Source: a virus
IMG/VR virus record: IMGVR_UViG_3300008459_000008
Location: 42,240-106,239 of that record
Length of the DNA stretch: 64,000 nucleotides
Reading direction: 5' to 3' (one strand)
Positions 25,581-63,587 of the stretch are shown here, in pieces. The position numbers were made by a program, and so were the translations under genes. The first letter of the stretch is position 1. Every line of letters begins with the position of its first letter. Under the pieces are notes generated by a model, which was not told the DNA's origin, made no database searches, and was given only the letters and a program-made list of their open reading frames with translations.

Positions 25581-26483
25581 ATGAATTTAAAAGAACTTAG
25601 AGCCTTTTATAACACAAAACCTGTTGAATTCGTAGTAAGAAGAAAACACGAATTGAATGAAGATAATTCATATGTACCAAGATTCAATCTAAGAGACACT
25701 ACACAGATTGTTGGTGTACCAATCAATGAACCAATAAAGCCAACACAAGAACTTTTAGTAAAGGCTATAAAATATGGTATGATTTTTCTTATCAACTATA
25801 AAGGTGAAGAAGATACTCACTTTGCTGGTCATGAACGTGTAATATATCCAATGGTATTGGGTAGATCATCAAAGGGTAAATTTTTGATAAGAGGATATCA
25901 CTTAAACGGTTGGTCAGTTTCTTCCAATAGACACGTAAATAAAATTTGGAGGATGTTTAGATTTGACAGAATTCTATCGATGACATTTACTGGTTCATTT
26001 TATAGATTACCACCACAAGGTTATAACATGAATGATAAAGGTATGAGAGGTGGGATTATTGCTAAAGCTGACTTCAATGAAATTAGAAAAAATCAACAAT
26101 CCCTTCTAAAAACACAAGAAATTCAAAATAAGGAAGAAATTACTCTAGCTGAAGAAAATAAAAGTATGGTTTCAATAAAAGTGAAACCAACAGAAACTAA
26201 GATTGATTTGAACAATCCACTAGATAACGCTTATGTTAATAATATGAAAGACATAGCTAATATTAGAATATCTTTTTTGAAGAGTTTATACGGAAATAGA
26301 TATATTGCTGTTGTTGGTGCACTTGGTCAACCAGGCAACACTGTTAAAGTTATGACTGATAAAGGATCTAATCTTGGCATCTATAAGGTTTTAGATTCGA
26401 TATCCGGTGACACTTTGAAAAAAATAAAACGTGTCAAAGGAAATACTATATTTGAAGTATTTTTATTTGATTCCAAAATTTAA
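25581..26483 (+). CDS. WYL-like domain protein
   Basis: INYKG...ERVIYPMVLG...LIRGY...WRMFRFDRI matches the WYL-domain pattern. Confidence 0.55.
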   Translation: MNLKELRAFYNTKPVEFVVRRKHELNEDNSYVPRFNLRDTTQIVGVPINEPIKPTQELLVKAIKYGMIFLINYKGEEDTHFAGHERVIYPMVLGRSSKGKFLIRGYHLNGWSVSSNRHVNKIWRMFRFDRILSMTFTGSFYRLPPQGYNMNDKGMRGGIIAKADFNEIRKNQQSLLKTQEIQNKEEITLAEENKSMVSIKVKPTETKIDLNNPLDNAYVNNMKDIANIRISFLKSLYGNRYIAVVGALGQPGNTVKVMTDKGSNLGIYKVLDSISGDTLKKIKRVKGNTIFEVFLFDSKI

Positions 26484-42145: not shown

Positions 42146-42675
42146 TACATCAAATCGTAAACCATTTGAGGTTCAAACTCATGGTCAGTTAAACAAAGAT
42201 CATAATCACAAAATTCATTGAAATCTTTTTCATCAGATTCCACTCTCCTTATTATTGAATCATTATAATCCCTTCTCTCAGATAACCTTTGTGTTCTGAT
42301 TTCTTTATCTATATTGAGATAAACTACAAAACACTTATTTCTATCCTCCATACTTATCTGTTTTAATTCTTCAGTTGTCATTATAAAAACTTGGTTATTA
42401 TCCCAATTTTCTTTTGTTATTCCATAATACCAATTGACTCCGTTTATTACAAAACATTCCGATGTTTTAATTTTACCTTGTTGATGTAACAAACTATAAA
42501 GATTATGATCTATAAAATCATAATCCTCACCATCAATTTCATTAGTTCTTTTTGGTCTGGTGGTAAATTTTGGTACATATTTTAGACCAAAATTTGTCAA
42601 TTCTCGTCTGAGATAATCTTTACCACTCCCAGATTTTCCCAAAATTATAATTTTTTCTTGTTTTTCACTCATCAA
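42142..42675 (-). CDS. gmk: Guanylate kinase-like
   Basis: GKSGSGKD, TTRPKR..EIDGEDYDF, WYYG motifs. Confidence 0.85.
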   Translation of the reverse strand: MMSEKQEKIIILGKSGSGKDYLRRELTNFGLKYVPKFTTRPKRTNEIDGEDYDFIDHNLYSLLHQQGKIKTSECFVINGVNWYYGITKENWDNNQVFIMTTEELKQISMEDRNKCFVVYLNIDKEIRTQRLSERRDYNDSIIRRVESDEKDFNEFCDYDLCLTDHEFEPQMVYDLMY

Positions 42676-61154: not shown

Positions 61155-61323
61155 TTTTTGATTTGTTAATTTTCTGCCCCACTTTTTCGAAAGAATCCTC
61201 AAGAATGTAGAGGCACAACATAGTTGTGACCATATCAGTAACACCAAGAAGATAGTACATAAAAGCCCCAATCAGCCATACAAAGTGACCGTAAATTTTA
61301 ATAAAGTTTAGTATATTTTTCAT
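61138..61323 (-). CDS. Small membrane protein
   Basis: Two hydrophobic segments; overlaps the ArfA-like start by 17 nt. Confidence 0.55.
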   Translation of the reverse strand: MKNILNFIKIYGHFVWLIGAFMYYLLGVTDMVTTMLCLYILEDSFEKVGQKINKSKNETDN

Positions 61324-61327
61324 AATA

Positions 61328-61335
61328 CAAATATA
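61328..61335 (-). promoter_or_regulatory. Bacteroidota sigma-A-type -7 element
   Basis: TATATTTG on the minus strand, with TTTG ~20 nt upstream; 4 nt before ATG 61323. Confidence 0.65.
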
Positions 61336-61365
61336 CGACTTTTTTTGATAATGGTTACAAAAAAT

Positions 61366-61839
61366 TTAATATTTCCATTCAATTTTTTGAAGAGACTTAA
61401 ATGGTTTTTTAGTAACTCTTTCTAAAATGGCTATTCCATAACAACCTTTGACTACTCTTTTCTCTTCGTCGAGAACTTGTTTTGTTTCAATCATTAAAAA
61501 GTAATTTTCAGTCCTTTTCATAGGCTGATATCTTAACATATAATCATCCTTTGTTATTAGTTTTTTTGTTAAAACGTGTCTATTTAAAGTGATCAAAGAA
61601 ACTTTCAAGGTATCTCCTAAATCTTTTGATTGAAATAAAAACGCTAATTTGGTTTTGTAACTAACATCGTTTAATTTGACGTAAGTCGTTTGACCAGATT
61701 TTACTTGAAAAACTACTTTGTCATATAAAACATAAGGGATTATATCAATACTATCCAATTTATTAGATAGTAAATCAAAACACTGTGAGTATAAGGTGTT
61801 TGTAATTAAAAATAATGTTAAAAATAAAAAAACCCTCAT
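61366..61839 (-). CDS. Secreted hypothetical protein
   Basis: Signal peptide MRVFLFLTLFLITNTLYS-QC. Confidence 0.65.
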   Translation of the reverse strand: MRVFLFLTLFLITNTLYSQCFDLLSNKLDSIDIIPYVLYDKVVFQVKSGQTTYVKLNDVSYKTKLAFLFQSKDLGDTLKVSLITLNRHVLTKKLITKDDYMLRYQPMKRTENYFLMIETKQVLDEEKRVVKGCYGIAILERVTKKPFKSLQKIEWKY

Positions 61840-61864
61840 AATCTATTTATTAAATTATGAGGGT
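61826..61864 (-). terminator. Terminator after the tRNA; its 3' arm contains the ATG of 61366..61839
   Basis: Minus strand ACCCTCATAAT-TTAATAAATAG-ATTATGAGGGT-TTTTTT. Confidence 0.7.
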
Positions 61865-61878
61865 GGGATTTTGGTGTG

Positions 61879-61984
61879 TGGGCCCTGTTGGATTCGAACC
61901 AACTACCTGCGGTTTATTTCTTCCAAGTGAATAAATACTATTCAAAAATGAGACCGCTGCTCTGACCGATTGAGCTAAGAGCCC
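61879..61984 (-). tRNA. tRNA(CAU), probably Ile2, with a 32-nt insert/intron in the anticodon loop
   Basis: GGGCTCT/AGGGCCC acceptor stem with A73; D-arm AGCTCAATCGGTCAGAGC; anticodon stem GCGGT/ACCGC; CT-CAT then 32 extra nt (61916-61947) then AA; T-arm GTTGG-TTCGAAT-CCAAC; no adjacent encoded CCA. Confidence 0.85.
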
Positions 61985-62020
61985 TTTATTTTGTTATATT
62001 TAAAATTAAATGATTGTTTC

Positions 62021-62059
62021 GAACTTGCGTTTTTAATACATAAAAATAAATGCGAGTTC
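62021..62059 (+). promoter_or_regulatory. Hairpin occluding the translation start region of the GIY-YIG gene, with a late-promoter-like loop
   Basis: GAACTTGCGTTT...AAATGCGAGTTC ends 1 nt before the ATG; the loop contains TAATACATA. Confidence 0.6.
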
Positions 62060-62060
62060 A

Positions 62061-62702
62061 ATGTTTTATACTGTTTACAAAATTACAAACAAAATAAATA
62101 ATAAAATTTATATTGGTGTTCATAAAACAAAGAATTTGGATGATAATTATATGGGATCCGGTAATAAAATTAAATTAGCAATAAAAAAATACGGAGTTGA
62201 AAATTTTGTCAAAGAATATCTCGCAATATTTGATAATCCTGAAGATATGTTTGATATGGAATCCAAAATTGTGAACGAAGAATTTATTTCTAATAAAGAA
62301 ACTTATAATATGACTATTGGTGGAAATGGATCCTGGGATTATGTAAATAATAACTTATCGATGGAAGAAAAAATAAATCACGGCAAGTGGTTGAGTGATA
62401 ATTATGCATCAAAGGGAGGTTCTTGGAAGAATTATGAAAAAAGAATTAAGGTTTGGAGTGTAGTTCCACTCGAGATTAGGCAGGAAAATGCCAGAAAAAT
62501 GGGTTACAAATTTGGTGGACAAAACAAATTCGAAAAAATAGAAATAGACAAAAGATTGGGATTGATTAAGGATATTGATCTGACAGAATTTGGTTGGGTC
62601 AAAAAGGTTGCAGATATTCTTCAAATATCACATACACAAGCCAAAAGATTTATAAAGAAGTATTATAAGGGGGAATATTATCAACGCAAAAGTCCAAGTT
62701 GA
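62061..62702 (+). CDS. Free-standing GIY-YIG homing endonuclease (Seg-like)
   Basis: YTVYKITNKINNKIYIGVH...YMGSG...AIKKYG.ENF...E...YNM..GG; C-terminal HTH-like segment; inserted antisense between two tRNA genes. Confidence 0.85.
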   Translation: MFYTVYKITNKINNKIYIGVHKTKNLDDNYMGSGNKIKLAIKKYGVENFVKEYLAIFDNPEDMFDMESKIVNEEFISNKETYNMTIGGNGSWDYVNNNLSMEEKINHGKWLSDNYASKGGSWKNYEKRIKVWSVVPLEIRQENARKMGYKFGGQNKFEKIEIDKRLGLIKDIDLTEFGWVKKVADILQISHTQAKRFIKKYYKGEYYQRKSPS

Positions 62703-62709
62703 TATTGTG

Positions 62710-62785
62710 TCGGCAAGATGGGGATCGAACCCATATGCACCTATTACCCTTTCGACACTTTATAAGAGTGAGGGGATACTCGCCG
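62710..62785 (-). tRNA. Atypical tRNA-like RNA with UAU anticodon and no canonical D-arm
   Basis: Acceptor CGGCGAG/CTTGCCG with A73; U8-A9; anticodon hairpin CACT-CTTATAA-AGTG; T-arm ATGGG-TTCGATC-CCCAT; only 6 nt in place of the D-arm and a 21-nt 3' connector. Confidence 0.7.
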
Positions 62786-62800
62786 AAGTGATTTGTTATA

Positions 62801-62808
62801 CAAAGATA
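62801..62808 (-). promoter_or_regulatory. Bacteroidota sigma-A-type -7 element driving the tRNA-like gene
   Basis: TATCTTTG on the minus strand, with TTTG ~20 nt upstream; 15 nt before the RNA. Confidence 0.7.
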
Positions 62809-62837
62809 ATACAAAAATGTTTAGTTACAAAGAAAAA

Positions 62838-63587
62838 TTAACTTTTTCTCCTACCAAAACTATCTACACTCCCATCGTGTTTAAAAGAACCATCCATATT
62901 ATACATAGTTCCAAAGTGATAACCCTTATCATCAAATAGATCCCATGATACATCATTTCCAATTTTTCTATATCCATACATTAGAGTTCTGTACTCATTT
63001 GTTTTTTTACCAACTAGCAAAGCCCTTTTGTTTCTGGAATAATCATTAATTTCGTATTTTAGTAAGTCATAGTTATTACTCTCGTTTATAGGACTTGAGT
63101 TAACCCAATCAGTAAAACCATCCCAACCATCTATAAACCAGTTAATACTTTTTAAAAAAATATCATTATCTTTCATTGGATATCTTACCTCAAATGCTTT
63201 CCTTGGAGTATTACCACTTACTGGAACCCCATCAGATTTTATGAAAAAGTAATCATCTTCATACTTTGTTACTGTTACATCAAATCTCATTTCGTTGGGA
63301 TATTCCAATTTCCAATTTACCCTACACATTATATCTTTTGGGTCTAATCTACCAAGTGAGTAAACACTCCTATATTTTAATTCAACACCAGTAAGTTCCG
63401 GTTTAAAATATTTGAGTAATAATCTTTCTATTTTTGGGTAATCACTTTCAGTAAGTGCTGATGGACCAGGATATTTAGCCAAATCATCTAATAGGTTCCA
63501 AGTATCACCTGGATCAAACTCTTGAAATGACTGACCTTCAAGGTAATCTTCAATATGAGATTCGTTAAATCTTTTCAAGTATTTCAT
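62838..63587 (-). CDS. Hypothetical protein with capsid-targeting-like N-terminus
   Basis: MKYLKRFNES plus internal INES; TAATATATAG upstream. Confidence 0.65.
   Translation of the reverse strand: MKYLKRFNESHIEDYLEGQSFQEFDPGDTWNLLDDLAKYPGPSALTESDYPKIERLLLKYFKPELTGVELKYRSVYSLGRLDPKDIMCRVNWKLEYPNEMRFDVTVTKYEDDYFFIKSDGVPVSGNTPRKAFEVRYPMKDNDIFLKSINWFIDGWDGFTDWVNSSPINESNNYDLLKYEINDYSRNKRALLVGKKTNEYRTLMYGYRKIGNDVSWDLFDDKGYHFGTMYNMDGSFKHDGSVDSFGRRKS

Follow-up and report, generated by a model that had tools for sequence, protein, structure and literature searches.

Ribonucleic acids that depart from the cloverleaf order of transfer RNA (tRNA) are known in a few forms. Metazoan mitochondrial D-armless tRNAs of the tRNA-Ser(AGY) type lack a hairpin between acceptor stem and anticodon arm; they have lost the D-loop, together with its T-loop contacts, and function with specialized mitochondrial factors. 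YrlA Y RNAs (RF02553; PMC4201824; bioRxiv 10.1101/312249) keep a tRNA tertiary core in an altered chain order through a permutation of the whole molecule, with a closed acceptor loop, a Ro60-binding stem, and neither a CCA end nor an anticodon loop. In the permuted tRNA genes of Cyanidioschyzon merolae and some archaea (PMC3728597, PMC4033280), the 3' half precedes the 5' half, and a circular intermediate leads to an ordinary tRNA. Phage tRNA clusters, for their part, can contain selfish genes such as that of T4 SegB, a GIY-YIG homing endonuclease which recognizes a T-arm motif and downstream tRNA-gene sequence, cleaves tRNA genes around the T-arm and 3' end, and drives the inheritance of the tRNA region in which it lies (PMC2330249). 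Here we describe a putative tRNA-Ile(UAU) gene of rewired layout, 76 nucleotides (nt) long and next to a SegB-like gene, in the IMG/VR virus record IMGVR_UViG_3300008459_000008. The window, by which we mean the whole stretch of 64,000 nt analyzed here (positions 42,240 to 106,239), is the last 64 kb of this 106-kb record, which is estimated to be ~42% complete; it has ~30% G+C and contains a T4-like baseplate gene. The parts of the element, in positions of the window and in canonical tRNA numbering, are the following.

62710-62785, minus strand: candidate rewired tRNA-Ile(UAU) gene, 76 nt, no encoded CCA (leave-one-out covariance model R2)
62779-62785, minus strand: acceptor stem 5' strand, paired 7/7 with 62711-62717; 62710 is the discriminator A73
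62773-62776, minus strand: equivalent of canonical 22-25 (D-stem 3' strand), directly after U8 A9
62755-62771, minus strand: anticodon arm, with the anticodon UAU at 62762-62764 and with U33, A37, and A38 present
62750-62754, minus strand: linker of 5 nt that leads back from the anticodon stem to the D-stem and may take the roles of 44/45
62746-62749, minus strand: equivalent of canonical 10-13 (D-stem 5' strand), placed 3' of the anticodon arm
62735-62745, minus strand: D-loop equivalent (A14 A15 .. G18 G19 .. A21), with U48 directly after
62718-62734, minus strand: T-arm, 5 pairs and the 7-nt loop TTCGATC

The minus-strand sequence, with its acceptor stem, T-arm, UAU hairpin, and missing D-arm, is exactly as given in a preliminary description of this DNA. 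The acceptor stem has seven pairs, one of them G-U, and the anticodon hairpin has 4 to 5 bp around the 7-nt loop CU-UAU-AA. Between position 9 and the anticodon arm the RNA has no hairpin, U8 A9 being followed there by five pyrimidines, and the twenty nt between the anticodon arm and the T-arm form no hairpin of their own. The element thus shares with canonical tRNAs the acceptor stem, a T-loop arm of the TTCRA type, and a 7-nt anticodon loop with U33 and a purine at 37, but not the D-arm, as only 5 nt separate A9 from the anticodon stem.

This layout is poorly recognized by tRNA finders. ARAGORN made no call at 62710-62785 in bacterial, intron, or mitochondrial mode, the last with lowered thresholds as well. 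The Rfam tRNA model (RF00005) scored the element at 26.3 bits, below the cutoff of 29, with the D-arm deleted and 17 nt inserted in the variable region; for comparison, canonical phage tRNAs in the loci examined scored 42 to 72 bits. Assignment to the mitochondrial D-armless type is contradicted by the lack of a call with ARAGORN -mt and by the presence of the D-loop nucleotides. The element also differs from the tRNA-like domain of transfer-messenger RNA (tmRNA) in having G3-C70, an anticodon arm, and a length of just 76 nt, and from YrlA and Y RNAs in its open acceptor ends and standard anticodon loop; the Rfam Y-RNA/YrlA models gave no match at the element. Judged by eye, neither an internal inversion nor a long variable arm yields a cloverleaf. 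The minimum-free-energy structure of the single sequence is a different fold from the one described below (z = -0.85, no better than shuffles). The single-sequence fold is therefore uninformative, and the case is made by comparison rather than from the window sequence alone.

BLAST searches with the window element found bajarodcaudo virus 1 and the crAss-like phage cr130_1, two phages of Bacteroidota type, both aligned across its unusual middle. The bajarodcaudo virus 1 element, used as a query in turn, found 77 Streptomyces phages and the cultured Bacteroides crAss-like phage Kehishuvirus tikkala. The crAss-like members carry the anticodon UAU or GAU, and the 77 Streptomyces phages carry GAU. 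In phage Felix O1 (NC_005282), an element at 25951-26029, 79 nt long and not annotated, shows this layout too, with the anticodon UCU and an Rfam score of 31.7 bits, and with this query 263 phage records were found, from several families including Felix O1-like and other enterobacterial phages (Arg UCU). These Felix O1-type elements are mostly unannotated or labeled "tRNA-OTHER." BLAST found the Felix O1-type Arg element in 0 of 5,426 complete Escherichia coli genomes, and all class members seen come from phage records, where they are almost always left unannotated. A search for the same scaffold with other anticodons had been proposed in the preliminary description, and GAU and UCU are the answer to it.

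Seventeen members could be parsed by us, segment by segment, in one order, which in canonical numbering reads 1-9, 22-43, linker, 10-21, 48-76. The chain starts with the acceptor 5' strand, U8 A9, one base, three bases that pair 3' of the anticodon arm, and one base (26). Then come the 5-bp anticodon arm, the linker, and the three pairing bases plus one, followed by A, R, two bases, GG, two to five bases (more in locus L013, introduced below), A, and one pyrimidine. The T-arm, the acceptor 3' strand, and the discriminator complete it. In the window, the CCC of the 22-25-equivalent strand pairs with GGG at 62747-62749. By family covariation, the helix enclosing the anticodon arm joins RNA positions 11-13 with 37-39 (62773-62775 with 62747-62749), C14 of the RNA takes the role of nucleotide 26, and U15/U31 is the conserved U-U pair 27-43. 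A CCCT/AGGG helix had been proposed earlier at this place; the pairing around the anticodon arm does covary, but the register proposed was off by one relative to 11-13/37-39.

The enclosing 3-bp helix is Watson-Crick paired in 17/17 members, in the five versions CCC/GGG, CTC/GAG, ACC/GGT, CGC/GCG, and CGT/ACG, and was 100% paired in the covariation test. Double changes occur in 3/3 of its pairs on alignments A3 and A5 and in 2/3 on the structure-blind alignment A2, and all 7 acceptor pairs show double compensatory changes across the family. The paired fractions were 95.3% (model-fitted alignment), 97.9% (structure-blind MAFFT alignment), and 97.4% (Ile-only alignment), compared with 37 to 53% for slid partners, and 0/500 shuffles matched the observed pairing or covariation score. 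As A2 and A3 misplace the 3' strand of the Ile-class anticodon stem, the Ile-only model and our own parse were used instead. The window anticodon stem covaries with those of the crAss-like and Streptomyces-phage members, with the U-U 27-43 kept in the Ile class. RNAalifold, applied to a MAFFT alignment of seven Ile-class sequences, gave exactly this structure, enclosing helix included.

Positions of the tertiary core are conserved as well. A14 and A21 are present in 17/17 members and GG at 18-19 in 15/17; L013 has G-C at 15-48, where the other 16 members have A-U, and it has A-U in place of the G10-C25 equivalent, which is found in 16/17. The linker has 4, 5, or 8 nt by class and ends in GAAA in all seven Ile-class members whose linker has 5 nt; L013 has a different linker, of 4 nt. 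Position 20, after the GG, is A in all UCU members and U in Ile members, and A73 is present in all Ile-class members. The window itself has A14, A15-U48, GG at 18-19, and A21, all following the anticodon arm with the spacing of a canonical tRNA; it holds every family-invariant base, and its four helices are fully paired except for the class-wide U-U 27-43.

A covariance model built from six Ile-class members with the window sequence excluded (R2) matched the element over its full length with 78.2 bits (E ~4e-18), its sole match in the window; it scored the Arg class at 40 to 49 bits and canonical tRNAs at 27 bits or less. With a further model, R1, the element was the only match in the 106-kb record. 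Together, the homologs and their covariation show that the element belongs to a conserved class of putative phage tRNAs with a covariation-supported secondary structure, in which the D-stem is predicted still to form but encloses the anticodon arm instead of the D-loop. The earlier suggestion that the element is not a product of decay is borne out by the same layout in 16 other members and by the score from the window-free model, and that of a topologically rewired tRNA able to keep an L-shape agrees with the homologs, the covariation, and the conserved nucleotides of the tertiary core.

An L-shape could survive the new chain order for the following reasons. In canonical tRNA, with tRNA-Phe as the example, the D-stem stacks on the anticodon stem, with 43 followed by 44 (opposite 26) and then by 10; A9 lies in the groove beside the 23-12 pair, next to 22, and A21 lies on the layer adjoining the 15-48 pair. 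Because of this geometry, the joins 43-linker-10, 9-22, and 21-48 of the rewired chain link positions that are already neighbors in the L-shape. The joins lost (9-10, 21-22, and 45-48) may then be dispensable if the helices form. The conserved tertiary partners are all retained in the sequence, and by analogy the core contacts could form, namely U8-A14-A21, 15-48, G18/G19 with the T-loop, and the stacking of the D-stem on the anticodon stem.

Compared with canonical tRNA-Ile(UAU) (loci L005 and L006, described below; RF00005), the window element has the same anticodon loop core, 7-pair acceptor stem, A73, T-arm, and length, as well as U8, A14, R15-Y48, G18 G19, A21, and the operon position upstream of tRNA(CAU). 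Its segment 10-21, however, stands after the anticodon arm, and 46-47 of the variable loop are absent, so that a three-way junction with a nested helix would replace the four-arm cloverleaf. Like the mitochondrial D-armless tRNAs, it is tRNA-sized, and its anticodon arm follows the acceptor stem without an intervening hairpin, but it keeps the D-stem and D-loop in a re-threaded form. With YrlA it shares the tertiary core in an altered order, without the closed acceptor loop and the other features listed for YrlA above. The segment order off the cloverleaf order is also found in permuted tRNA genes; the window gene, however, begins and ends with an acceptor strand and lacks a splicing motif, and its mature RNA would thus not be a cloverleaf. 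These three are the nearest published systems, and the defining features differ in each. No description of the present layout was found in the open-access full-text literature that we searched.

The element is the first gene of a small operon, whose other features are as follows.

62801-62831, minus strand: Bacteroidota-type promoter of the tRNA operon, TTTG, 19 nt, TAnnTTTG (exact motif match)
62786-62800, minus strand: 15-nt 5' leader, between the -7 box and the first acceptor base
62061-62702, plus strand: SegB-like GIY-YIG homing endonuclease gene (weak Pfam GIY-YIG and SegE matches)
61879-61984, minus strand: second operon gene, a tRNA(CAU) whose anticodon loop contains an insert of 32 nt (Rfam 57.9 bits, 36-nt insertion)
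61832-61864, minus strand: intrinsic terminator closing the operon, the sole terminator-like site in 61300-63000

We investigated this locus in relatives of the window phage. A flanking protein of 249 amino acids (aa) has homologs at 67 to 95% identity, and their profile retrieved nine metagenome loci. One of them, L005, has 95.6% DNA identity in the flank and a promoter identical to that of the window, and the promoter is conserved in L006 and L007 ahead of a canonical tRNA-Ile(UAU). The preliminary description had taken a promoter of its own as a sign that the element is not decaying; the motif is there, but the argument is weaker than it seemed, as this is the ancestral promoter of a two-tRNA operon and precedes a canonical tRNA in relatives. 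Homology to L005 ends exactly at 62786, the base before the element, and likewise for L006 and L007; that to L007 picks up again exactly after tRNA(CAU). In the slot between, L005 to L007 have a canonical tRNA-Ile(UAU) (61 to 65 bits; 922-994 in L005 and 2210-2282 in L006), a 4-nt spacer, and an uninterrupted tRNA(CAU). A fourth relative, L013, has an 83-nt rewired UAU gene, which was picked up by the covariance model and lies 4 nt upstream of a tRNA(CAU) one base different from that of L006, hence with the same spacer and a different architecture. The D-loop region of this L013 gene (1110-1192, plus strand) has 18 nt, compared with 10 to 12 nt in the others, with ~8 extra nt after the GG.

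The endonuclease gene is absent from L005 to L007 and from L013. In the window, the rewired allele, the endonuclease gene, and the interrupted tRNA(CAU) form one block in place of the canonical pair of L005, and such a block replacement suggests co-conversion during homing, which would produce this pattern. No cleaner argument for the interchangeability of the two architectures is available than this series of a canonical allele, a rewired allele, and a rewired allele with a homing endonuclease. With exact and degenerate DNA patterns the window allele was not found in the viral contig collection, and the exact patterns were absent from 185,579 species genomes. The acceptor stem of the window element resembles that of E. 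coli tRNA-Pro; the pattern search gave no genome with this stem combination.

From these comparisons we consider it reasonably probable that the element is a working, AUA-decoding tRNA-Ile(UAU) on a non-cloverleaf topology. It would be transcribed from the operon promoter, trimmed by RNase P, which presumably removes the 5' leader (62786-62800), and by 3' nucleases, given its CCA by the CCA-adding enzyme, charged by isoleucyl-tRNA synthetase (IleRS), and then used to read AUA. The allele probably arrived with the adjacent SegB-like endonuclease, displacing the canonical tRNA-Ile(UAU) of the slot. ATA makes up 39.5% of the Ile codons of the phage, or 27 per 1000 codons. Several points weigh against decoding. 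We know of no demonstration that bacterial RNase P, CCA-adding enzyme, IleRS, EF-Tu, or ribosome accepts such a chain order, and an unmodified UAU anticodon could misread AUG. The D-like helix has just 3 bp, and its five versions come from few lineages. A T-stem U-U mismatch occurs in two crAss-like members, and two acceptor-stem U-U mismatches occur in tikkala. As the window allele was found nowhere else, its own state is judged by its match to the family consensus, and as the neighboring tRNA(CAU) looks disabled by its insert, the cassette may tolerate defective genes. We put forward more tentatively the stronger proposal of a fully working decoder, charged by IleRS and accepted by a bacterial ribosome despite its non-cloverleaf form, whose rewiring is adaptive: phages would retain a decoder that they need and yet escape a host tRNA or anticodon nuclease or a homing endonuclease such as the adjacent one. 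Nuclease escape would account for a class seen only in phages, often with endonuclease genes.

The conservation and covariation prove selection on the fold, not on decoding, and the RNA could instead be a conserved tRNA mimic outside translation, folded and processed like a tRNA but serving to divert or soak up some factor that binds tRNA, for instance a host anticodon nuclease, a modification enzyme, or a partner of the Ro60/Y-RNA type. The preliminary description, too, had suggested a decoy, or else evasion of tRNA-targeting defenses. Phage tRNAs are known to counter tRNA-cleaving defenses (PMC10264068, PMC11464382, PMC11555353). YrlA is a precedent for re-threaded tRNA mimics in bacteria, and a gene for a Ro60-like "RNA-binding protein" stands beside the Felix O1 tRNA array; in the 106-kb record, itself only ~42% complete, no TROVE/Ro60 gene was found. 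Against a mimic, the free 5' and 3' acceptor ends and the standard 7-nt anticodon loop are kept, and the same slot in close relatives holds a canonical tRNA of the same anticodon. The anticodons are isotype specific and complement the canonical set of the phage: the anticodon of the rewired gene in Felix O1, tikkala, and bajarodcaudo virus is missing from the canonical genes of the same array. Identity bases also follow the anticodon, with A20 accompanying UCU and A73 accompanying Ile; A20 is an identity base for arginyl-tRNA synthetase. We therefore regard a mimic as unlikely, though it is the rival that survives best.

If the class works as tRNA, the window allele might still be a dead or dying copy brought in by endonuclease co-conversion. 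The selfish endonuclease gene is only 7 nt away, the other tRNA of the cassette bears a 32-nt insert, the allele is unique in all collections searched, and its D-loop is one base shorter than those of the other Ile-class members; degenerate tRNAs do exist in phage arrays, for example as 35-bit partial matches in loci L027 and L028. Random decay, however, would not have spared 19 pairs and ~25 invariant bases, and the complete pairing of the four helices apart from U-U 27-43, the presence of all invariant bases, the score of 78 bits from the window-free model, and the intact promoter make a dead copy improbable. A simpler version, in which the element is a rearranged tRNA pseudogene or a damaged allele beside the endonuclease, was dropped after homologs with covariation were found.

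We give the least credence to a reading at the DNA level, in which the rearranged allele escapes homing endonucleases that target tRNA genes and spreads thereby, working or not. T4 SegB does target a T-arm motif and downstream tRNA-gene sequence, one base of the window T-loop deviates from the core motif of SegB, the canonical allele is found in the relative L005, which lacks the endonuclease, and five rewired genes abut endonuclease genes (those of the window, Felix O1, Roth37, Kamaji, and Morttis). But a SegB-type site comprises the T-arm and the acceptor 3' strand, precisely the parts that are not rearranged, and the conservation of the RNA tertiary core would be left unexplained. Most rewired genes, among them those of tikkala, the Streptomyces phages, KB57, phi92, and SHEFM2K, have no adjacent endonuclease, and at 0/13 loci with homologs of the window endonuclease was a rewired tRNA found; these have canonical tRNAs only. 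The link to endonucleases is thus suggestive and not general.

Textbooks and current reviews treat the cloverleaf as universal in bacterial-type translation. The class described here, a conserved and different way of threading what is predicted to be the same three-dimensional core, occurs in hundreds of genomes of phages of Bacteroidota, Actinomycetota, and enterobacterial hosts and is missed or mislabeled by annotation pipelines; the window adds to it a UAU member from a jumbo phage and the allelic series of canonical and rewired genes. If these RNAs work, there are systematic gaps in phage tRNA repertoires and in analyses of codon usage, another course of the backbone must be tolerated by RNase P, CCA-adding enzyme, synthetases, EF-Tu, and the ribosome, and a natural scaffold for orthogonal tRNA design is at hand.

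The promoter motif TTTG-N19-TAnnTTTG has 9 matches in the window versus 2.8 expected, and from the promoter motifs and the crAss-like relatives of the RNA the host is probably a member of the Bacteroidota. The second gene of the operon, tRNA(CAU), looks Ile2-like by eye. ARAGORN places an intron in it at (36,32), and the gene is uninterrupted in L005, L006, and L013. An insert of 32 nt is too short for a group I intron, and to our knowledge tRNA splicing endonucleases do not occur in bacteria. As the downstream tRNA(CAU) showed no promoter motif of its own, transcription of the operon probably continues across the endonuclease gene in the antisense direction.

The endonuclease gene is convergent with the rewired tRNA gene, its end lying 7 nt from the tRNA 3' end. 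It has ~70% DNA identity to Seg-like genes of T4-like phages, with a C-terminal domain that has no match, and all inspected homologs sit within phage tRNA arrays. As in the T4 SegB system (PMC2330249), a phage tRNA cluster contains a GIY-YIG gene that close relatives lack, and genomes with and without the endonuclease have different flanking tRNA alleles; unlike in T4, the window gene is antisense to the tRNAs and has the unmatched C-terminal domain. In L006 and L007, a 185-aa HNH endonuclease gene (L007 3074-3631, minus strand) lies just downstream of tRNA(CAU) and overlaps its 3' end. The presence of different selfish genes at this locus in relatives makes the small tRNA operon a repeated landing site of homing endonucleases.

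Further observations concern rewired genes in other phages. In Acinetobacter phage Morttis (L015 1773-1852, plus strand), an unannotated UCU element lies immediately upstream of a SegB-like endonuclease gene; with a 5-bp helix CCCAC/GTGGG around a 6-bp anticodon stem it is a more divergent rewiring, to which R1 gave only 24 bits. The tikkala gene (L036 594-670) fills a 90-nt gap between two tRNAs; the host of this phage is Bacteroides cellulosilyticus. In cr130_1 (L032 1447-1493, plus strand), the 5' two-thirds of a canonical tRNA, comprising acceptor strand, D-arm, and anticodon arm, stand 4 nt upstream of the rewired tRNA-Ile(UAU) and look like the remnant of a displaced resident gene. In the Streptomyces BE-cluster phages (L033-L035 598-674, plus strand), the rewired tRNA-Ile(GAU) stands alone between genes for a small nucleotidyltransferase and an FtsK-like translocase. 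The rewired Arg(UCU) gene of Streptomyces phage Yaboi (L043 145-222, plus strand) is annotated as tRNA-Val(aac), and in several enterobacterial phages the rewired gene is overlapped by a "hypothetical protein" or HNH coding sequence. Finally, in two IMG/VR phage contigs with homologs of the window endonuclease (L021 and L023 1-296, plus strand), a partial tmRNA adjoins the tRNA array and is matched by the permuted and beta-proteobacterial tmRNA models.
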